Notes: generated by a model from the sequence alone, not told the origin. A stretch of DNA of 64,000 bases from an uncultured Phycisphaerales bacterium (GCA_965371965.1 CBDVAM010000002.1:1617-65616), one strand, 5' to 3'. Counted from the stretch's first letter, positions 2,709 through 42,556 are shown. Numbers and translations: made by a program.

Positions 2709-3176
2709 ATGCCCGACAAGCCCCCACAACCCTGGACATCCAACGCACCCTTCTCCACCCAGCGCATCCGCGCCGCAGCCGTCTACTGCTCCGACGGACG
2801 CTTCGGCGAGCAGTTCGATGACCTCTGCCACAACGCACTCGACCTCCCCCGCTACGACCGCCTCGCCGTCCCCGGCGGCGCGGCCTGCCTCGCCGGACAC
2901 TTCTCCGCCCACAGCGAAGAGCACTCCGTCGAACAACAACTCCGCTTCCTCATCGAGGTCCACGAGATCGAGCGGGTCGTGCTCATCGCCCACCAGGGCT
3001 GCGCGTACTACACCCACCGCCTCAACATCCACACGATCGACCTGCACGCCCGCCAGCTCGACGACCTCGCCCGCGCCACCACACATGTCCGGGGGCTCAA
3101 CGCCAACCTGCAAGTCGATGCCTTCTTCGCGGCCCTCGACGACGACCAAGTCACCTTCAACCAGATCGACGCCTAA
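2709..3176 (+). CDS. small protein (155 aa) with beta-carbonic-anhydrase-like CxDxR ... HxxC motifs
   Basis: ORF 2580..3176 with an internal ATG at 2709 (MPDKPPQPW...). Contains VYCSDGRF and LIAHQGCAYY, resembling the beta-CA zinc-ligand signature (C-x-D-x-R, H-x-x-C). It is shorter than typical beta-CAs, so the function is tentative. Confidence 0.45.
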   Translation: MPDKPPQPWTSNAPFSTQRIRAAAVYCSDGRFGEQFDDLCHNALDLPRYDRLAVPGGAACLAGHFSAHSEEHSVEQQLRFLIEVHEIERVVLIAHQGCAYYTHRLNIHTIDLHARQLDDLARATTHVRGLNANLQVDAFFAALDDDQVTFNQIDA

Positions 3177-3707: not shown

Positions 3708-4964
3708 TCAGCAGCCGATCACGAAAAGATCCAGGTACGCAAAGAAGTCGTTGGAATCGATGGTTCCGTTGCCATCAATGTCCGCCCTCGGATCATCGGC
3801 GGCAAAGAGATCCAGAAAGTCGAAGAAGTCGTCGGCATCGGCATCGCCGTCGCCGTCGATGTCGGCACCACAGTTCTTGGGCGGCGCGATCGCGTTGAAC
3901 AGCACGCTAGTCGTATTGCTGTCGCCATTCGGCACGGCCAGGTCGGCCATGGTGTCGCCGTTGAGGTCCGCGACGGCTATCTGCTGGGGAGCTGTGCCCG
4001 TGACGAACTGGACCGGCGCACCCAGCGTGCCGCCGAGGTTCTCCAGGCCGCTGACAAAGCTCAGATCCTCGTCGCCGACGACGACGTCGAGGTCGCCATC
4101 ACCGTCGAGGTCGACCGCGGCGATGTCGCCCGGGTTCTGCCCGCCGGTCGTGAAGAATGCCGGGCCGGTGAAGGTGCCCGCACCGGTGTTACTGAAGAGG
4201 TTGAGGAAATCGCCGGAGGCGAGTACGTCAACGTCGCCGTCGCCGTCCATGTCGCCGGTCTCGATCGAGCTCGGGCGCTGATTCGGTGTCGAGATGGACT
4301 GGGACATGCTGAACACGCCGGCGTTATTGGTGAAGAACGCCACGTCGCGGAGCTGGCGACGCCCTACGGCGAAGTCCAGATCGCCATCGCCGTCAAAGTC
4401 GCCGAAGTCTGCCCCGCCGGCCTCGTCACCGACCGAGACGTTGGTGGCGGTGAACACGCCGGCGTTGTTGACCAAGACCGAGACGCTGGCGCCGCTGCGA
4501 TTGGCGGTGAGCAGATCCATATCGCCATCGCCATCAACATCGCCCATTTTCATGGCGCGCGGCTCGCTACCGGTCGCGGCATCGCCCGCCGCACCGAACA
4601 CGCCGGCGGTGTTGGTATATACCCGCACGGTGTTCATGTTCTTGAGAACGACGGCGAAGTCTGTGTCGCCGTCGCCATCGAAGTCATGGGCCTGGAGCGT
4701 GTCGGCGCCGCTGTTCGCGCCGGTGAAGATCTCTGCGGTCTGGGTGAATACACCGGCGTTGTTGGTGAAGATGAGGACGCGGTCCGGTTGGGATACCGAG
4801 ACAGCGAGATCCATGTCACCGTCGCCATCCCAATCGCCCGCGGCGACACCGCCTGGGCGCTGCGCGGTCGCGAGGTTGGTTGCCGGGTCGAACGCCGGCA
4901 CTTCTGCGACCACCGAGGCCGCCAAGCCTGCCACGAGGATCGCACTGATTGTCTTTCTGGTCAT
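3708..4964 (-). CDS. secreted 7x FG-GAP (integrin-alpha-like propeller) protein with C-terminal Gly-Cys-terminated double-dockerin module (member A)
   Basis: ATG at 4964 (MTRKTISAILVAGLAASVVAEV signal peptide, AGGAG upstream). Seven repeats of type GDWDGDGDMDLAV / HDFDGDGDTDFAV. C-terminus NCGADIDGDGDADADDFFDFLDLFAADDPRADIDGNGTIDSNDFFAYLDLFVIGC*. Confidence 0.85.
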   Translation of the reverse strand: MTRKTISAILVAGLAASVVAEVPAFDPATNLATAQRPGGVAAGDWDGDGDMDLAVSVSQPDRVLIFTNNAGVFTQTAEIFTGANSGADTLQAHDFDGDGDTDFAVVLKNMNTVRVYTNTAGVFGAAGDAATGSEPRAMKMGDVDGDGDMDLLTANRSGASVSVLVNNAGVFTATNVSVGDEAGGADFGDFDGDGDLDFAVGRRQLRDVAFFTNNAGVFSMSQSISTPNQRPSSIETGDMDGDGDVDVLASGDFLNLFSNTGAGTFTGPAFFTTGGQNPGDIAAVDLDGDGDLDVVVGDEDLSFVSGLENLGGTLGAPVQFVTGTAPQQIAVADLNGDTMADLAVPNGDSNTTSVLFNAIAPPKNCGADIDGDGDADADDFFDFLDLFAADDPRADIDGNGTIDSNDFFAYLDLFVIGC

Positions 4965-5031
4965 GACTTCATCTCCTGTGTTTGAAGAGCTCGTTGATAC
5001 GCCGCACAGCGCGGCACCGATGAGTTGCATG

Positions 5032-5046
5032 GCAACTCGCGTGCCA
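5032..5046 (-). promoter_or_regulatory. sigma54 (RpoN) -24/-12 promoter, perfect core TGGCAC-N5-TTGC
   Basis: The minus strand reads TTTGGCACGCGAGTTGCC (reverse complement of 5031-5048). It is intergenic, ~68 nt upstream of the ATG at 4964 of member A. Confidence 0.7.
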
Positions 5047-5141
5047 AAGTCGCGTCACAGGGTGCGCCGGCGTCGCTCGCTGTCACGCAGCGCCGGGTGT
5101 CAAGTGACGATCGCCCCTGGCTTGCACTGGCCATGGCGATT

Positions 5142-5155
5142 GGCCAATAGTGTGG
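5142..5155. promoter_or_regulatory. candidate enhancer/UAS motif GGCCAATAGTGTGG (copy 1)
   Basis: About 100 bp upstream of the sigma54 element at 5032-5046. Near-identical motifs occur at 8830-8841 and, inverted, at 11530-11542. Overlaps the palindrome TTGGCCAA. Confidence 0.35.
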
Positions 5156-5239
5156 AAGCAAAGAGAAGACCGGAGCCCCATGGGCACCCGGCCTCCGGGT
5201 TTGAGTTTGCGCTGTCCGTTGCGACGGATCTACAACAAC

Positions 5240-6592
5240 TCAGCATCCGGTGACGAAGAGGTCGAGATACGCAAAGAAGTCGTCGGCGTCGATGTCGCCA
5301 TCGCCGTCGATATCTGCGGCGGGGTCGTCGGCGGCGAACAGATCGAGATAGGTGAAGAAGTCGTCGGCGTCGGCATCGCCGTCACCGTCGAGATCGGCAG
5401 CGCAGCCCAGAGCCGGATCGTCGTACCCGACGAGGTGGATGTCTCCACGCCCGGCGCCGAACGACCACGCCGTCCCGCCGACGACGATCTTGTCGGTGCC
5501 GACGGCCACGGACCATGCCCGGTCGTCGGATACACCCCCGTCAGTCTCGCTCCAGAGCTCGACGCCGTTGGCGTCTGTGCGGACGATGTACATGTCCGCG
5601 CCGCCCGCGCCGAACGAGCCGGTCATGCCTACGAAGATGAACCCGCCGTCGGGCATTACACGCACGCATTGGCCCTTGTCGTCGGCGCGCCCGTCTCCGA
5701 AGATCCGCGTCCAGATGGGCTCTCCCAGGTCATCGGTGCGAACGAGGGCCATATCGGAATCGCCCGACTGGTTCGCGAAACTCCCGGCGAGGACAAAGCC
5801 CCCGTCGGCGAGTTCGCGGATCGAACTCAGGGTGCTGGAGCCCCCGCCGTTGTTGTGCGTCTGGTCCCAGATCGCAACGCCGAGCTCATCTGTGCGGATC
5901 ACCCACCAATCCCAGATTGGGCCTTGCACGAACCCGCCGATGATGTACCCGCCGGTGGAGACCTCTTCAATCGCGAGCGCAACGTCCGAGCCTGCGTTGG
6001 GGCCATCGTCGTACTCGTAGGTTTGCGCCCATTGCTGGATGCCGTTTGCGTCGGTCTTGACCACATACATGTCGTAGCTGCCGAAGTCGCCGTCGAGGAA
6101 CCACGTCTGCCCGGCGATGATGAAGCCGCCGTCGGATGTGAGAGCCAGGGCGTGCGCTCTGCTGTCTCTGCCCGCGTCGTAGGTCCTCTCCCACAGCAGG
6201 CCGCCGTTGGCGTCTGTCCGGATGAGGAAGGCTCTGAATGAGCCGTTTCTCCCGGTCCTTCCGGCGATCGCGTACCCGCCACCGGGCAGCTCTTTGACAT
6301 CGGCCCCGTAGTTATGGAAGTCCGATAGGTTATCGAATGTCCGCGACCACTCCTGGTCGCCGTTGGCGTCGGTCTTCACGAGGTACACGGCTATGCCCGA
6401 GTTGGGTGAGAACGATCTGCTGAACCCGACGGCGATGTACCCGCCATCGCGCGTCGCCTCGATCGCGAATGCCCCGTCCTCGCTTTCGCCGCCATAATCG
6501 CGTGTGAAGAGAACGTCTTGGGCGCGTGCCCCCGGGGTGCCGCCCGCGACCAGCACCGCGGCGAAGACCATGAGTTTTCTCTGAGCGTGCAT
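5240..6592 (-). CDS. secreted beta-propeller repeat protein with Gly-Cys double-dockerin module (member B)
   Basis: ATG at 6592 with AAGGAG 7 nt upstream. Signal peptide MHAQRKLMVFAAVLVAGGTPGARAQ. Six to seven ~50-aa repeats (TDANGxxxW...DGGYIxxG). C-terminus GCAADLDGDGDADADDFFTYLDLFAADDPAADIDGDGDIDADDFFAYLDLFVTGC*. Confidence 0.85.
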   Translation of the reverse strand: MHAQRKLMVFAAVLVAGGTPGARAQDVLFTRDYGGESEDGAFAIEATRDGGYIAVGFSRSFSPNSGIAVYLVKTDANGDQEWSRTFDNLSDFHNYGADVKELPGGGYAIAGRTGRNGSFRAFLIRTDANGGLLWERTYDAGRDSRAHALALTSDGGFIIAGQTWFLDGDFGSYDMYVVKTDANGIQQWAQTYEYDDGPNAGSDVALAIEEVSTGGYIIGGFVQGPIWDWWVIRTDELGVAIWDQTHNNGGGSSTLSSIRELADGGFVLAGSFANQSGDSDMALVRTDDLGEPIWTRIFGDGRADDKGQCVRVMPDGGFIFVGMTGSFGAGGADMYIVRTDANGVELWSETDGGVSDDRAWSVAVGTDKIVVGGTAWSFGAGRGDIHLVGYDDPALGCAADLDGDGDADADDFFTYLDLFAADDPAADIDGDGDIDADDFFAYLDLFVTGC

Positions 6593-20395: not shown

Positions 20396-21321
20396 TAGCG
20401 GCAGACCATCGGCTGTTTGGCGTCCCGCAACGCAAGATCGACCAATCGCGAGCACAGATCGCCAAGGTCCAGCCCCGAGGCCCTGGCGGCCATGGGCAGC
20501 AGCGAGTGGCTGGTGAACCCGGGCATGGTGTTGATCTCCAGGAATCGTCCGACGCCATCATCCCCGAGCACGAAGTCGGCCCGCGCCAGATGGCGAAGCC
20601 CGAGGTCTTGATAGATCGCCTCGGCGTGGGAAACCACGGCGCTGGCGGCCACATCGTTCAGCGGCGGAGCGACGACATACCGGGTCTTGTCGCTCTGGTA
20701 CTTGGCGTCGTAGTCGTAGAACCCTTCGCTGGGCACGATCTCGATGATCGGCAGGGGCTCGCCATCCACTAGTGACACCGTCAACTCGCGCCCCGACGCG
20801 AAGCGCTCGATGATCCACGGGGCGCTGGCGTCCCCATCGCGCGAGAGACTCTCTCGGGACTGCTTCCAGTCAGCATCAGATCGGCACACACGCACGCCGA
20901 CGCTCGATCCGTCGGCGACGGGTTTGATCACGACGGGGAACTCCAGGGGGGACTCGCTGGGGATCGTCTGAGCGATCTGATGGCCGCAGATGGGGATGCC
21001 CAGCGCGAGGGCACGCTCCAGTGTGCGTCCCTTGTCCATGGCCAATCGAGCACCGAGTGATCCGGCCCCGACAAAGGCCCTGGCGTGTTGCTCGAGGAGT
21101 TGTTGTATCTCGCCGCCCTCGCCCCAGGGGCCGTGGAGGACGGGGAAGATGACGCCCGGGGCGAGCGCCTCAATATCGTCGGCGTCGAGCAGACCGATCT
21201 CGTGAAACGACACGTCGAACTTCGGGTTTGATGCGAGCGCATCGGCGACCGCCCGCGAGCCGGCCAGCGAGACCTCGCGCTCCCCCCCCACGCCGCCGCC
21301 GAGGACGATCACGCGGGTCAT
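20395..21321 (-). CDS. ddl: D-alanine--D-alanine ligase
   Basis: MTRVIVLGGGVGGEREVSL..., HGPWGEDG-like VLHGPWGEGGEIQ, ATP-grasp motifs, C-terminal EINTMPGFTSHSL. The ATG at 21321 overlaps the murB stop (ATGA). Confidence 0.9.
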   Translation of the reverse strand: MTRVIVLGGGVGGEREVSLAGSRAVADALASNPKFDVSFHEIGLLDADDIEALAPGVIFPVLHGPWGEGGEIQQLLEQHARAFVGAGSLGARLAMDKGRTLERALALGIPICGHQIAQTIPSESPLEFPVVIKPVADGSSVGVRVCRSDADWKQSRESLSRDGDASAPWIIERFASGRELTVSLVDGEPLPIIEIVPSEGFYDYDAKYQSDKTRYVVAPPLNDVAASAVVSHAEAIYQDLGLRHLARADFVLGDDGVGRFLEINTMPGFTSHSLLPMAARASGLDLGDLCSRLVDLALRDAKQPMVCR

Positions 21322-37280: not shown

Positions 37281-37739
37281 ATGTTGAAGCGTCACGGATT
37301 TGGTGTGAGTGGGGCAATCGGCGCGGTTATCGCGCTTGGCGTCACCGGGGTCGTCGGCTACTCGATGGTCTCGGGTCAGTGCCTCCTGGGCGGATGCGAC
37401 GCCGGCAAGGCGAGCTCGGCGGCGGCATTGGCGACGGCGACGGTCGTCAGCGCCGACGAGAGCTCCACCTGCTCCACGGGCGGGGGCGAACTGGCAGACA
37501 GCGGGTTGATCCTCGCCAGTGATGCCACCACAGACGAGGGCTTCGTGGCCTGCGAGGGCGGCCCGGAGAACGCCATTGCGTGCGAGTCGTCTTGCCAGAG
37601 CGACGTGCCGGCCACCATCGACGGCGGGGAATCGAATCTCACCGTGGTCCACGCGGAGACCGAGGGCGAGTGCTCGGCGGCGGGCGCGTGCTCCGAGGCA
37701 TCCAAGAGTGCGTGCCAGAACGAGAAGCCCCTCGAATAG
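37281..37739 (+). CDS. small membrane-anchored Cys-rich protein (152 aa, 11 Cys)
   Basis: AGGAG lies 6 nt upstream of the ATG at 37281. TM helix GAIGAVIALGVTGVVGYSMV. Cys-rich, acidic ectodomain. Confidence 0.55.
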   Translation: MLKRHGFGVSGAIGAVIALGVTGVVGYSMVSGQCLLGGCDAGKASSAAALATATVVSADESSTCSTGGGELADSGLILASDATTDEGFVACEGGPENAIACESSCQSDVPATIDGGESNLTVVHAETEGECSAAGACSEASKSACQNEKPLE

Positions 37740-37848
37740 GGCTGGTTGACCGACGGACAAGTTCGAGCAGCAAGAGCCCCCCACTTCGGGGGGTTCTTCT
37801 ATAGGACAAGCGGTGAGGCTCAATGCACCGGCGACTTACACTGGCGTG

Positions 37849-38277
37849 ATGGCAACATTTCTCTTCAAGACAGAGCCGGGCGATTACTCCTGGGACGACC
37901 TCGTGCGCGACAAACGCACCGAATGGGACGGAATCACCAACCCCGCGGCGCTGAAGCACCTGCGGGCGGCGCGCAAGGGCGATGAGGCGTTCATCTATCA
38001 CACCGGCGATGAGCGACGCATCGTGGGCCTGGCGAGCATCGTCAAGGGCCCCTACCCAGACCCCGCACGCCCGGAGAACACCAAGGCCGGGGACACCAAG
38101 TTTCCGCTCGTGGATATAAAGGCGTTGCGGGCGGTGCAGACGCCGGTGACGTTGGGCGAGATCAAGGCTGATGCGCGGTTCGAGGGGTTTGTGTTGTTGC
38201 GGGAGTCGAGGCTGAGTGTGGTGCCGGTGCCTGCGGAGATGGATAAGGCGATACGGAAGATGGCGGGGCTTTCCTAA
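37849..38277 (+). CDS. EVE (PUA-like, DUF55) domain protein
   Basis: MATFLFKTEPGDYSWDDL...WDGITNPAALKHLRAARKGDEAFIYHTG...IVGLASIVK is a typical EVE domain. Confidence 0.85.
   Translation: MATFLFKTEPGDYSWDDLVRDKRTEWDGITNPAALKHLRAARKGDEAFIYHTGDERRIVGLASIVKGPYPDPARPENTKAGDTKFPLVDIKALRAVQTPVTLGEIKADARFEGFVLLRESRLSVVPVPAEMDKAIRKMAGLS
38081..38277 (+). repeat. direct repeat, left copy (3' ~200 bp of the EVE gene)
   Basis: Roughly 90% identical by eye to 42585..42784, e.g. GACACCAAGTTTCCGCT.GTGGATAT.AAGGCGTTGCGGGC.GTGCAGACGCCGGTGACG. Confidence 0.85.
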
Positions 38278-38297
38278 GCTGGCCCGCACGGCAGGGG

Positions 38298-38326
38298 TTG
38301 CACCCAGTCGGCAAAGTGTGTATATT
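38298..38326 (+). promoter_or_regulatory. sigma70-like promoter TTGCAC-N17-TATATT
   Basis: -35 TTGCAC (38298-38303) and -10 TATATT (38321-38326) with a 17-nt spacer. About 35 nt upstream of the SD/ATG at 38348/38361. Confidence 0.5.
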
Positions 38327-38399
38327 CGGACTTGGCCACAACGGCCAAAGGAGATCTCCGATGGAACGGATTGAACGATTGAACGATGGAGCAGTTCGA

Positions 38400-38415
38400 G
38401 GGGGGGGGGGGGGGG
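38400..38415 (+). repeat. G16 homopolymer inside the 5' end of a coding region
   Basis: 16 consecutive G counted (38400-38415). Lies between the SD-preceded ATG 38361 and the long ORF beginning at 38432. Confidence 0.9.
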
Positions 38416-38431
38416 TAAAACCCTGGTTCTC

Positions 38432-39742
38432 GTGAGCCTTGCCCTGCTGACGGCGACGCTTGCCACAGGCGCGGCGAGCGCGCAGGAAATCGTCCCAACC
38501 TTCCAAGATCCTGTGGTCTTTGACACGGGTAGCTACCCCTACGGGCTGGCGGCGGCGGACCTGATCGGCGACGACGGGCTGCCGGAGATCGTGGTCGCAA
38601 ACGGCGCTTACAACGCGTTCGATTGTATCGAAGACGGGACGACCGGCACGATCTCGGTCTTTCGCAACACCGGAAACTGGGATCCCGGCCCCGGTGCCGG
38701 ACTCGTGCTCGAACAAACGATCGACATCTGCGACGACTGTGTGCCGGCGGAGATCGTCGTCGCCGACATCGACATGATGGATGGACCCGATCTGGTCATC
38801 AGCGCCGCGGGCGTGAACGACCCGGGCATTTATGTCTGCTACAACGATGGCACGGGGAACTTCGCTCGGATCGAGTACTTCGAGACGCCGCTGCCCGTGC
38901 GCGGGCTTGTCGCTCGCGACGTTGATAACGACGGCTGGATCGATGTCGCAGCGGGCGTCGACTACTGCGACCGGGTTCTCGACACCGACAAGGTGTACTT
39001 CCTGTTCAACGATGCCACCGGCTCCGGCTTATTCGAGCCTGAGATTCTCGAGGTGGACCTCGGCACGGATGAGCGCCTGCCGGGGTGCGACATCGTGGCG
39101 GCGGACTTCTTCCGGCTCGCGCTGGGCCCGCCGATCGTAGACGTCGTCAGCGCCAACATGTGGGACGACTCGTTCACAGAGATCCGCAATCTCGGTAATC
39201 GCCAGTTGAATCCGCACACGACCGAGAGCGGCGGCTGTGGAGACGTGAGTTGGGAGTTCGAGACGATCACTGCAGGGCGGTTCGACAGCAACTCCTTCGA
39301 CGATTTCGCCGTCACCGAGTTTAGGGCCGACTTCGTGGACATCTTCCTCGGCAACGGGGCGGGCGGCTACACGTCCTACTGCGACAACCCCGACCTGCGG
39401 ATGGCGACAGGCGGGACCTTCTGCTGGGGCGTGGAAAACGGACACCTCAACGGACCGGCGAACAAGACCGACCTCGCCGCGGCGCTCGTTCTCAGCAACC
39501 AGGTCTCGGTCATGCTGGGCAGGGGCGACGGCACGTTTCAGACGTTCGAGGACGACGACAGCCAACTGGTGAGCGTCGAGCCCCCGGGCGGCCCTCTCTT
39601 TGAAGCCGATGGCACCATCATGGTCATCGTGGCAGACATGGACCAGGACGGCTTCGGCGACATCGTGACGACCAATCACTTCTCCGACAACATCAGTGTC
39701 CTGATCAACGAGCTCAAGATCGTGCCGGGCCAGGGATCCTGA
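38432..39742 (+). CDS. secreted FG-GAP/VCBS-type propeller protein (no dockerin module); 5' end apparently frameshifted at the G16 tract
   Basis: FG-GAP-like blades (AAADLIGDDGLPEIVVANG, VVADIDMMDGPDLVISAAG, VARDVDNDGWIDVAAG, IVADMDQDGFGDIVTTN). The ORF as sequenced opens at a GTG with no SD. ATG 38361 has a perfect AAGGAG 7 nt upstream but is in another frame (see findings). Confidence 0.75.
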   Translation: MSLALLTATLATGAASAQEIVPTFQDPVVFDTGSYPYGLAAADLIGDDGLPEIVVANGAYNAFDCIEDGTTGTISVFRNTGNWDPGPGAGLVLEQTIDICDDCVPAEIVVADIDMMDGPDLVISAAGVNDPGIYVCYNDGTGNFARIEYFETPLPVRGLVARDVDNDGWIDVAAGVDYCDRVLDTDKVYFLFNDATGSGLFEPEILEVDLGTDERLPGCDIVAADFFRLALGPPIVDVVSANMWDDSFTEIRNLGNRQLNPHTTESGGCGDVSWEFETITAGRFDSNSFDDFAVTEFRADFVDIFLGNGAGGYTSYCDNPDLRMATGGTFCWGVENGHLNGPANKTDLAAALVLSNQVSVMLGRGDGTFQTFEDDDSQLVSVEPPGGPLFEADGTIMVIVADMDQDGFGDIVTTNHFSDNISVLINELKIVPGQGS

Positions 39743-39759: not shown

Positions 39760-41034
39760 ATGATCCGGCGATGCGGAAACAGATGCAGGGGCACGCTGCG
39801 CATCAGGTTGCTTGTGCTGGCGGTGGGCGTTCTCGCGATCGCGGGATCGCCCGCCCCGGCGCAGGACGATGAGCCCCACTTCATCAGGCTCGGGCATTTC
39901 CCCGACGGGCTCTCTGCCAGTGGCGCGAACGATATCTCGCCGGAGGGCTCGGTCGTCGTCGGCTCCGCCCCGCATGCCGGCTTTGGCGACTTCGAGGCCT
40001 TCCGGTGGACCGAGCAAACGGGATTGGTCGGCCTGGGCAGGCTGGTTGCATGGGGCATCTCAAAGGCGCGGGCGACATCGTCGGACGGCGAGGTCGTCGT
40101 CGGGTGGTCGCACTCCGCGCAGGGTCCCGAGGCATTCCGCTGGACCGAGCAGACGGGCATGGTCGGGCTCGGGGACCTGCCCGGCGGGAAGTTCAACTCC
40201 ATGGCGTTCGGCGTCTCGTGGGACGGACGGGTCATCGTCGGGCACGGACGTTCGCCAGACCTCGAGGCCTACAGGTGGACGCCCGAGGAAGGCATGGTTG
40301 GACTTGGGGACCTGCCCGGCGGGAGCGTTTGGAGCGCGGCGATCGCCGTTTCTGCCGACGGCTCGGTCATCGCCGGGCACAGCAGTTCCGCCAACGGCCG
40401 CGAAGCGTTCCGCTGGACGCCCGAGGAAGGCATGGTTGCCCTGGACCAATCCGATGACTGGTCAAGTACGGCCGTATACGGCATTTCAGCGGATGGTCGA
40501 ACCGTGGTCGGGTTTGGGTTTTTTCGCGGCGAACGTTCAGAGGCGTTCCGCTGGACGCGGGCAACGGGCTTTGAGGGGCTCGGCGACCTGCCCGGCGGGC
40601 GGTTCCAGAGCACCGCAAGGGCCACCAACGCCAACGGCTCGATCGTCGTCGGCGAGAGCATCACCGAGACCGGCAACCAGCCGTTCATTTGGACCAAACG
40701 CCACGGCCTGCGCAACCTACGCGACCTGATCGTCGACGGACTCGGTCTGGATGTCGAAGACATGGAACTCAAGTACGCCAGCGCCGTCTCCGCCGACGGG
40801 CGATGGATCACCGGCGGCGCCTGGACCGACGACGGCTCGGAGGGATGGGTGGTGTATCTGGGCCCGGGCTGCCCCGCCGACTTCGACGGAGACGCCGACA
40901 CCGACGCGGAGGACTTCTTCCTCTACCTCGATCTCTTCGCCGCGGGCGACATGCGCGCCGACATCGACGACGACGGCGACATCGACCAGGACGACTTCTT
41001 CGGGTACCTGGATCTGTTCAGCGCGGGCTGTTAG
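39760..41034 (+). CDS. secreted HAF-family extracellular repeat protein with Gly-Cys double-dockerin module (member F)
   Basis: Six to seven ~45-aa repeats (EAFRWTxxxGMVGLGDLPGGxxxSxAxxVSADGSVIxG), matching the HAF repeat pattern as I recall it. C-terminus GCPADFDGDADTDAEDFFLYLDLFAAGDMRADIDDDGDIDQDDFFGYLDLFSAGC*. Confidence 0.8.
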   Translation: MIRRCGNRCRGTLRIRLLVLAVGVLAIAGSPAPAQDDEPHFIRLGHFPDGLSASGANDISPEGSVVVGSAPHAGFGDFEAFRWTEQTGLVGLGRLVAWGISKARATSSDGEVVVGWSHSAQGPEAFRWTEQTGMVGLGDLPGGKFNSMAFGVSWDGRVIVGHGRSPDLEAYRWTPEEGMVGLGDLPGGSVWSAAIAVSADGSVIAGHSSSANGREAFRWTPEEGMVALDQSDDWSSTAVYGISADGRTVVGFGFFRGERSEAFRWTRATGFEGLGDLPGGRFQSTARATNANGSIVVGESITETGNQPFIWTKRHGLRNLRDLIVDGLGLDVEDMELKYASAVSADGRWITGGAWTDDGSEGWVVYLGPGCPADFDGDADTDAEDFFLYLDLFAAGDMRADIDDDGDIDQDDFFGYLDLFSAGC

Positions 41035-41083: not shown

Positions 41084-42556
41084 ATGTTTCAGCGTGGAAG
41101 CCAGCGAAGAACGAGGCGAAGAATCTCGCGGAGCGGGATCGGAGCGCCGTGCATGGGTCCGACGCGGAGCATCTGCGTGTCCGTTGCGGTGGCCGCCCTC
41201 GTGGCGGCGGGCGCGCAGGCACAGCAGCTCGCAAAGTTCACACCGGAGGACGGCGTGAGATGGGGAGACTTTGGCAGCAGCGTCTCGATCAGCGGGTTCA
41301 CGGTGGTCGTTGGGTCTCGGAACGGGCGTGCAGCGGGGCTTGCCAGCGGTTTCGCGTCCGTGTACCGAGCATTGGGCGGAGACTGGCGGCAGATCGCCCT
41401 GATCACCGCTGACGACGCCGCACGCGGCGATGAGTTCGGCTTCAGCGTCTCGATCAGCGGGGACACCATGATCGCCGGGTCGATTCATGACAACGAGCAA
41501 GGAGACGGGAACCGCCACACAGGCCGTGGAGCGGCGTACATCTTCCGCGAGATCGATGGGCTGTGGCGGCAGGTCGCCAAGCTCAGCGCCGATGACGGCG
41601 AGGCCCGCGACAGTTTCGGCACCAGCGTCTCGATCAGTGGTGATACGGCCGTCGTTGGAGCCCCTTTCGACAGCGATGCGGGCAGGTTGAGCGGCTCAGC
41701 GTACGTCTTTCGGGAGGAGGATGGGCTGTGGCGGCAGGTCGCCAAACTCACCGCCGACGACGCCGAGGCCGGCGATTGGTTCGGTACCAGCGTCTCGATC
41801 AGCGGGGACACGGTGGTCGTCGGGGCTCACAGAGACAACGGCGCGGGCGGGAACAGCGGCTCGGCGTATGTCTTCCGCGAGGTAGATGGACTGTGGGGGC
41901 AGATCGCCAAACTCACCGCCGACGACGCCGAGGCATCGGACCATTTCGGCATCAGCGTCTCGATCGGCGGTGATACGGCGGTGGTCGGGATTCGCAGAGA
42001 TCAGCAGGGGGATCCCGACAGCGGATCGGCGTATGTCTTCCGCGAGGTTGACGGGGTGTGGCGACAAATCGACCAGCTTCGGCCCGACGATGGGATGCCT
42101 CACGACCACTTTGGCACCAGCGTGTCGATCGATAGAAACGCCATTGTCGTCGGTGCCTCGGGAAGCGATGGCGCGGGCCTGAACAGCGGCTCGGCGTATT
42201 TGTTCCGCGAGTTCGATGGCGTGTGGGAGCAGGTTGAGAGAGTCTTCCCGCAGGACGGCCAGTCCTCCGATTTGTTCGGCGAGAGTATCGCGATCAGCGG
42301 TGATGTGGCTGCGATCGGAGCTAGTGGTGACGACGATGAGGGTCCGCTCACGGGTTCGGCATACGTCTTCTGGGTCGGGTCGAGCTGCCCGGCCGATTTG
42401 GATGGAGACGCCGACGCCGATGCCGACGACTTTTTCGCCTACCTCGACGCCTTCGTCGCCGGCAACCTCGACGTCTGCGACATCGACAATGACGGCGACT
42501 GCGACGCCGAGGACTTCTTGGGCTTTCTGAACCTGTTTGCTTCGGGGTGTCCGTGA
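41084..42556 (+). CDS. secreted FG-GAP repeat protein (8 blades) with Gly-Cys-Pro double-dockerin module (member G)
   Basis: AAAGGAGG lies 7 nt upstream of the ATG at 41084. Repeats DxFGxSVSISGDTxVVGA...GSAYVFRExDGxWxQ. C-terminus SCPADLDGDADADADDFFAYLDAFVAGNLDVCDIDNDGDCDAEDFLGFLNLFASGCP*. Confidence 0.85.
   Translation: MFQRGSQRRTRRRISRSGIGAPCMGPTRSICVSVAVAALVAAGAQAQQLAKFTPEDGVRWGDFGSSVSISGFTVVVGSRNGRAAGLASGFASVYRALGGDWRQIALITADDAARGDEFGFSVSISGDTMIAGSIHDNEQGDGNRHTGRGAAYIFREIDGLWRQVAKLSADDGEARDSFGTSVSISGDTAVVGAPFDSDAGRLSGSAYVFREEDGLWRQVAKLTADDAEAGDWFGTSVSISGDTVVVGAHRDNGAGGNSGSAYVFREVDGLWGQIAKLTADDAEASDHFGISVSIGGDTAVVGIRRDQQGDPDSGSAYVFREVDGVWRQIDQLRPDDGMPHDHFGTSVSIDRNAIVVGASGSDGAGLNSGSAYLFREFDGVWEQVERVFPQDGQSSDLFGESIAISGDVAAIGASGDDDEGPLTGSAYVFWVGSSCPADLDGDADADADDFFAYLDAFVAGNLDVCDIDNDGDCDAEDFLGFLNLFASGCP

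Follow-up and report, generated by a model that had tools for sequence, protein, structure and literature searches.

The question raised by this locus is why a gene for a putative secreted protein should be separated from its most plausible start codon by a long run of G residues that puts the two out of frame. The locus lies in a window of 64,000 nt, the whole stretch of DNA analysed, from an uncultured Phycisphaerales bacterium (GC content 64.3%; positions are those of the window and on the plus strand unless stated). Within it a 436-aa open reading frame (ORF) with FG-GAP repeats is preceded by a Shine-Dalgarno (SD) sequence and an ATG, and between that ATG and the ORF there are sixteen G residues in a row (G16). 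An earlier inspection of the window, referred to here as the sequence-only reading, proposed that the run is a slipped-strand ON/OFF switch or else a homopolymer assembly error. Our analysis makes it likely that G16 is a genuine hypermutable homopolymer, and that through slipped-strand mispairing it makes the translation of a secreted FG-GAP propeller protein phase-variable.

The G run and its reading frames

G16 is a gross outlier in the window and more than a product of chance. The counts of G runs drop about four-fold per extra base (204, 51 and 5 for lengths 4, 5 and 6), lengths 7-15 do not occur in the 64 kb, and the single run of 16 stands alone. It had been described as unusual, and indeed no other G run in the window exceeds 6 and no C run exceeds 8.

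The positions reported earlier for the promoter hexamers, AAGGAG, ATG, G16, TGA and GTG were all correct on re-check. The frame from ATG 38361 reads MERIERLNDGAVRGGGGGVKPWFS and then a stop, 24 codons in all; it passes through the sixteen G (38400-38415), downstream of which it reads TAAAACCCTGG, and ends at TGA 38433-38435. The 436-aa ORF is in another frame, the main frame, which has a TGA at 38372-38374 and then no ATG, GTG or TTG until 38432, so that as sequenced it can be started only at GTG 38432, as had been claimed. This first possible start overlaps the TGA of the other frame (GTGA).

The consequences of a change in length were followed by simulating tracts of different lengths. With G14 or G17 the ATG at 38361 is joined in frame to give MERIERLNDGAVRGGGGG(G)KTLVLVSLALLTATLATGAASAQ, and the window is ON with the SD-preceded ATG at 14, 17 and 20 G. 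At 15 or 18 G the only in-frame start is an ATG without SD at 38386, and lengths of 13, 16 and 19 G leave the main frame without any upstream start. With regard to the earlier suggestion that fusion would give a signal peptide with n-, h- and c-regions, the simulated product has, by inspection, MERIERLNDGAVR-G6-K, TLVLVSLALLTATLATGA and ASA-QE as these three parts. Both OFF frames meet a stop 0-6 codons past the tract. The locus thus has the frame properties of a phase-variable gene, with a 5' tract in the reading frame and truncation upon a unit change, if translation begins at ATG 38361 as the SD and its conservation suggest.

The promoter proposed for the gene, TTGCAC-N17-TATATT, is a less certain matter. 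The sequence is present and aligns in orthologues, but only 8 of its 12 positions agree with the sigma-70 consensus, and a consensus promoter scan did not call the pair at 38298-38326. We retain it as a putative promoter on account of its conserved position in the orthologues, where TTGyry-N17-TAnnyT aligns, and not on account of the scan. The aligned pairs are TTGCAT-N17-TATGTT in locus L001 and TTGTGC-N17-TAATCT in L002, L003 and L005, in intergenic DNA that is otherwise diverged.

Orthologous loci

A protein search gave one identical entry and three close orthologue clusters, P0002, P0003 and P0004, with 71%, 65% and 62% identity respectively. The nearest database relatives are metagenome-assembled genomes (MAGs) labelled Phycisphaerales or Phycisphaeraceae. 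A genome scan contributed one further useful locus (L006) and the more distant L007. A metagenome scan yielded nothing beyond an orthologue truncated at its 5' end (L009) and one distant relative (L010). In nine independent assemblies the order of an EVE-domain gene followed by the FG-GAP gene is maintained across the tract, and the intergenic region has a common layout: TTGyry-N17-TAnnyT, then AAGGAGG or AGGAGG, an ATG 4-7 nt further on, an R-rich leader, the G run, TAA(T/A)nCCTG, and a hydrophobic stretch ending AxA-Q.

The run itself is G11 in L001, G11AGG in L002, G9 in L003, L004, L006, L011 and L012, and G8 in L005, the last six being from one species. A comparison of tract lengths among isolates or metagenomic reads had been recommended as a check; made here among assemblies, it shows that tract length differs between lineages and also, as G9 versus G8, within a species. 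With the window this makes four lineages with a G run at the same site, which supports the slipped-strand proposal, switching being what such variation would reflect.

The leaders of the orthologues (MRQRRIGSVGGSRNLR, MHTTERTSRLGTR/W) are R-rich, of 12-16 codons, and have the same frame relation to the gene. The main-frame h-region 5' of the annotated start is kept in L001, L002 and L003, and on visual assessment fusion gives every lineage an N-terminus that resembles a proper signal peptide, with an organisation analogous to that of the window. The annotated N-termini in the orthologue clusters, MLAAAVGAGSAGAQ, MLALSSAQAQ and MLVLGSAQAQ, are by comparison implausibly short.

Each lineage has lengths at which the SD-preceded ATG would be in frame. 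L001 is ON at G10 and G13, its other frames having no start, and the observed G11 is in the null class. L002 is ON at G10AGG, with an SD-less ATG in the remaining frames. The G9/G8 species is ON at G7 and G10, and its other frames hold an SD-less ATG or GTG; the extra GTG is confined to strains of the L003/L005 type, and some of these SD-less starts sit within or just past the putative promoter. The G run, TAA(T/A) and nCCTG motif is kept in all lineages. No terminator-like site was found between the EVE gene and the FG-GAP gene, and read-through transcription from the EVE gene could make the upstream SD-less ATGs of the G9 species usable.

The distant orthologues L007, L013 and L014 (45-47% identity) have no G run and have ordinary leaders, from which we infer an origin of the tract in the ancestor of the clade that carries it. 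Two of these loci have peculiarities of their own. In L007 (Phycisphaeraceae MAG CAYMZJ010000013.1, 45% identity) a perfect 14-nt tandem repeat, GGCCGGTCTTCACA x 4.9, sits between a promoter-like pair, TTGACA...TAGATT, and the start codon, with repeats at 2764-2831 and 2964-3001, and the region coding for the signal peptide also carries (GGGGGT) x 3.3. These repeats may represent a different repeat-based control in the same gene family. In L013 (178-230; Logan ERR10503244, P0006, 47% identity) the leader MRTRQHIS is followed by an in-frame TAA, where the relatives P0008 and P0009 have Lys, and past it the same frame runs on into a signal peptide, so that the database protein begins at an internal GTG. 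Either this TAA is a further case in the family of a knocked-out N-terminus, or it is an error in the reads.

Maintenance and mutability of the tract

Three deep lineages can be compared: the window, L001, and L002 together with the G9 species. Synonymous divergence (dS) among them is 0.84-0.95, and at four-fold sites they are identical in a fraction of 0.49-0.55, where composition would predict about 0.37. In the window genes GGG makes up 25% of Gly codons and GGC 54%. With synonymous sites so diverged and GGG so infrequent a choice, the G runs must be kept at the nucleotide level and not as glycine coding, and we conclude from these comparisons that the tract appears to be maintained by selection for something other than a coding need. 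A constraint for poly-Gly is itself rejected on the codon usage.

The mutability of the tract is best seen in the six assemblies of the G9 species, which differ by 1-50 substitutions over 4.3 kb of flank and gene and in which the tract is the only site with a non-triplet indel. Over 4299 nt, one substitution and the indel in the tract are all that separates L003 (G9) from L005 (G8). Length thus varies between close strains while the flanks are constant, although this is a single variant among six assemblies and a sequencing error in L005 is possible. A useful internal control for homopolymer calling is at hand in an in-frame G8 (GCG GGG GGG GCA) in the 3' part of the adjacent HAF/dockerin gene, which is unchanged in all assemblies (L003 and L005, 5359-5366; L006, 5329-5336; L004, 4548-4555). 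A homopolymer of 16 nt is expected to be very unstable, given the general mutability of such runs. The tracts of G8 to G16 are all above the cut-off of at least 7 G/C used by PhasomeIt, which its authors derived from experiments that demonstrated switching in C. jejuni and other bacteria (PMC6321876).

A model for phase variation

We propose that translation would begin at ATG 38361 and that the tract, translated as a series of glycines (GGG), would link the charged n-region of a signal peptide to its hydrophobic h-region. Slipped-strand mispairing at replication would add or remove G residues and so give heritable, reversible flips within a lineage. With 14, 17 or 20 G the complete pre-protein would be made and exported. 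At OFF lengths translation would terminate at TAA 38416 or TGA 38433, leaving at best a signal-less or poorly exported product from GTG 38432, and the G16 allele as sequenced would be OFF. Premature termination would probably also reduce expression of two downstream genes for dockerin-type surface proteins. The benefit might be escape from phage, from grazers or from costly adhesion.

Several observations weigh against this proposal. The SD-preceded ATG is out of frame in all nine assemblies (four lineages) and none has an ON length, these being consensus sequences only; the probability of finding no ON allele by chance is about 0.13-0.2, given some 4-5 independent observations, which is not significant but is noteworthy. 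Natural coexistence of ON and OFF alleles was thus not seen in this small, consensus-only sample, nor were longer N-terminal protein variants found in the 90% clusters. G9 is present in five assemblies of one species that are up to about 1.2% apart, which suggests that the G9 consensus is not changing quickly or that OFF is favoured. The SD-less ATG or GTG codons in other frames of L002 and the G9/G8 species may make OFF leaky. Lastly, the promoter and the use of ATG 38361 are deduced from conserved motifs, and the quality of the signal peptides was judged by eye.

Alternative explanations

The absence of an ON allele from all nine assemblies leaves room for expression that depends on slippage by RNA polymerase or the ribosome, and this is the alternative that survives best, though we think it unlikely. 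In programmed recoding the DNA would normally be out of frame and only some messages or ribosomes would yield the full pre-protein, either because RNA polymerase slips on the G run or because the ribosome shifts, by -1 in G GGG GGG or by +1 at GGG TAA, giving constitutive low-level or tunable expression. The SD-ATG frame of L001, L002 and L005 does end in GGG TAA directly after the run, from which +1 leads to the main frame, and the window and the G9 strains would need -1 on a pure G run. Purifying selection on an ORF that is everywhere 'OFF', and the constancy of G9 across strains, also fit. However the direction of shift needed differs by lineage, +1 in L001, L002 and L005 and -1 in the window and G9 strains, and so even within one species, which is unlike a tuned recoding site. 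Nor is tract length conserved, at 8 to 16, and the search for an RNA structure that might stimulate a shift was negative (z-score of the fold 0.43; no Rfam match). Bacterial transcriptional slippage is known mainly on A/T runs (general knowledge, with background in PMC3711429). The lack of ON alleles in nine is weak statistically, and recoding is in any case compatible with switching at the DNA level.

The strict form, in which the chromosome of the whole clade is kept in a non-productive frame and every pre-protein molecule depends on slippage of RNA polymerase or the ribosome on poly-G, is likewise improbable. If true, the tract would be a conserved, length-tunable 'attenuator' of a surface-protein operon and not a heritable ON/OFF switch. 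We know of no description of poly-G-based recoding in bacteria.

A miscall of length, with a true tract in frame (e.g. G17) and the gene ON, is distinctly improbable. Long G runs are difficult on all platforms and an error of one base in the sixteen would be enough. However the shorter, easily sequenced runs of the orthologues (G8, G9 and G11) are out of frame too, and five independent assemblies share G9, so that the out-of-frame state is not a random error and assembly error as put forward in the sequence-only reading is disfavoured. The 32 other intact ORFs of at least 250 aa in the window also argue against an assembly prone to homopolymer errors. Furthermore a G run of 16-17 nt would still be hypermutable and frame-setting, and a miscall would change the state assigned but not the nature of the feature.

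We give little credence to a leader ORF with re-initiation, in which ATG 38361 starts a separate peptide of 24 codons, the propeller is translationally coupled from GTG 38432 and the tract plays no part. Coupling would suit the GTGA overlap seen in the window, and MSLALLTATLATGAASAQ might still serve as a weak signal peptide. But the overlap is not kept, the leader frame of the orthologues stopping 21-37 nt before the first internal start, and the internal starts leave only the short annotated N-termini given above, which lack room for an h-region. In all lineages the main-frame h-region begins directly past the tract, upstream of those starts.

That the gene is a frameshifted pseudogene, or the run a chimeric or poly-G junction, is hardly credible: the gene is out of frame as sequenced and two-colour Illumina chemistry is known to produce spurious poly-G, but the synteny across the tract rules out a chimeric junction, the ratio of non-synonymous to synonymous divergence (dN/dS, 0.24-0.33 across lineages) rules out a pseudogene, the structure model is confident, and sequence divergence excludes a single mis-assembly shared by the orthologous contigs. 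As sources of the tract a chimeric join, chance, poly-Gly constraint and pseudogene decay are thus all very unlikely. Two further candidates were rejected: a riboswitch or structured leader (no Rfam match with E <= 1 over 37500-39000, and a leader fold no better than shuffles) and a G-quadruplex as a general explanation, as the orthologues have merely 8-11 G.

The propeller protein and neighbouring genes

The 436-aa ORF has a match to Pfam FG-GAP_3 (PF13517; E 1.3e-11, 45.3 bits against a cut-off of 26.9). The AlphaFold2 model, from a 17-sequence alignment, is all-beta, with a predicted local distance difference test score (pLDDT) of 88.6 and a predicted template modelling score of 0.89. Disorder is limited to residues 1-16 and the last four, and residues 1-16 of the annotated protein have pLDDT below 50. 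Foldseek matches, with E from 1e-8 to 4e-11, are to beta-propellers of the FG-GAP and other types and include an ITFG2-like KICSTOR chain, the Psathyrella PVL lectin, CRTAC1 and integrin alpha headpieces. The model and matches indicate an FG-GAP/VCBS seven-bladed beta-propeller, and the dN/dS values indicate that it is under purifying selection.

The coordinates of the features are given in Table 1.

Table 1. Features of the FG-GAP propeller locus and its neighbours in the window
Feature	Coordinates	Strand	Evidence or remarks
EVE-domain gene	37849-38277	+	Directly upstream of the FG-GAP gene in the window and all orthologous loci
Putative promoter, TTGCAC-N17-TATATT	38298-38326	+	Match and alignment in orthologues; function presumptive
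Shine-Dalgarno, AAGGAG	38348-38353	+	7 nt before ATG 38361; AAGGAGG or AGGAGG at every orthologous locus
Likely true start and signal-peptide n-region (MERIERLNDGAVR, 13 codons)	38361-38399	+	Sole frame open from SD to tract
G16 homopolymer, frame-setting	38400-38415	+	Homologous runs of other lengths in orthologues
Early stops of both OFF frames	38416-38435	+	TAA 38416-38418 (ATG 38386 frame), TGA 38433-38435 (ATG 38361 frame)
Signal-peptide h- and c-regions, KTLVLVSLALLTATLATGAASA then QE	38417-38482	+	Main frame, directly after the tract, 5' of the annotated GTG
FG-GAP/VCBS propeller ORF as annotated, 436 aa	38432-39742	+	Pfam, AlphaFold2, Foldseek, dN/dS
HAF-repeat protein with GC-type dockerin	39760-41034	+	NCBIfam TIGR02913 and NF041540; start 18 nt after propeller stop
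FG-GAP_2 repeats with GC-type dockerin	41084-42556	+	Pfam FG-GAP_2 E 7.7e-118; NCBIfam NF041540; putative operon member

The HAF/dockerin gene is probably co-transcribed with the propeller gene. The third gene starts fifty nt after it, and tight spacing of the FG-GAP and HAF genes is also found in L001 and L005. The switch may thus possibly be polar on the downstream genes for dockerin proteins. The HAF gene shows variation of another kind, as its central 1 kb or so (at about 4380-5350; the gene is the homologue of window 39760-41034) is strongly diverged in L011 relative to L003, L005 and L006, while the flanks are >99% identical and the parts for the signal peptide and C-terminal dockerin are nearly identical. 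From these alignments it looks as if one allele of a surface protein had been exchanged for another in L011, in the manner of a cassette. In L004 the same central region is a scaffold gap filled with N.

Within the leader codons there is an imperfect direct repeat, GATTGAACGATTGAACGAT, at 38369-38387. Third-position GC in the 39-nt leader is about 31%, against about 0.8 in window genes, and this may represent an AT-rich translation-initiation region.

The window also has C7 at 3350, C8 at 21282 and C7 at 43181, all of them short, and no further switch candidates were found among these. The C8 at 21282-21289, second in length to G16 among G/C runs, reads on the minus strand as an in-frame G8 in codons 11-14 of a gene starting at ATG 21321 (MTRVIVLGGGVGGEREVSLAGS...), which we read as Ddl-like (D-Ala-D-Ala ligase) from its N-terminal motif.

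Significance and comparison with known systems

Homopolymer phase variation is textbook material for host-adapted pathogens. To our knowledge it is barely documented in free-living environmental phyla, and among the papers listed by a full-text literature search there was no reported case of phase variation by simple sequence repeats or homopolymers in Planctomycetes. Neisseria, Campylobacter, Helicobacter and Listeria offer well-studied examples of the mechanism (PMC2192423, PMC6321876, PMC2831843), but its setting here in an uncultured high-GC planctomycete, and the depth of its conservation, are unusual. Even at a dS of about 0.9 the contingency tract has persisted at the same codon position, ahead of clustered genes for surface proteins of the FG-GAP, HAF and GC-type dockerin kinds, and this suggests that stochastic switching of surface proteins also occurs in marine or sediment Phycisphaerales, e.g. 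versus phages or grazers, or for attachment and detachment.

There is also a lesson for annotation. Gene callers shorten such genes, all of the database entries beginning at an internal GTG, TTG or ATG, and signal peptides are missed as a result. MAG pipelines may in turn flag such genes as frameshifts or pseudogenes.

The closest parallels are lgtA/C/D and pgtA of Neisseria and the poly-G/C genes of Campylobacter jejuni, in which, likewise, the reading frame contains near its 5' end a homopolymer of G or C that is at least 7-8 nt long, with length setting the frame and both OFF frames stopping early, length varying among strains or species, and a product of the cell surface or secretome (PMC2192423, PMC2193922, PMC6321876). 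In contrast the bacterium here is not a host-adapted pathogen but an uncultured Phycisphaerales-like planctomycete with 64% GC that is apparently free-living, the gene is for an FG-GAP propeller, the system is known from sequence alone with no ON allele seen, and G16 is at the long end of tracts, the usual range in Neisseria and Campylobacter being 8-13. In the Neisseria opa genes (CTCTT)n, and in Helicobacter pylori oipA, sabA and hopZ (CT)n, lie in the regions coding for signal peptides. In opa, oipA, sabA and hopZ, as here, a repeat lies in leader-peptide coding and a frame change abolishes export or translation of the intact surface protein, but their units are penta- or dinucleotides, whereas here a mononucleotide run is read as glycines between n- and h-region.

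Homopolymeric tracts at the 5' end have also been described as general inactivation devices, as in the poly-A of Listeria inlA (Orsi, Bowen and Wiedmann 2010, PMC2831843). Our locus shares with these a 5' homopolymer at which a frameshift would truncate a surface protein after a few codons and would frequently revert, but in that survey it was poly-A/T and not poly-G that was enriched, in tracts of about 7 nt.

With regard to slippage, known transcriptional cases include insertion sequence (IS) elements, Thermus dnaX and poly-A rescue in endosymbionts (PMC1088944). Like these, and like the +1 shift at the stop codon of prfB, our locus has a shift-prone site that could rescue an out-of-frame template, with GGG TAA present in three loci. 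Those systems, however, use A/T runs or a tuned CUU UGA with an internal SD and have a fixed direction, whereas here both direction and length vary.

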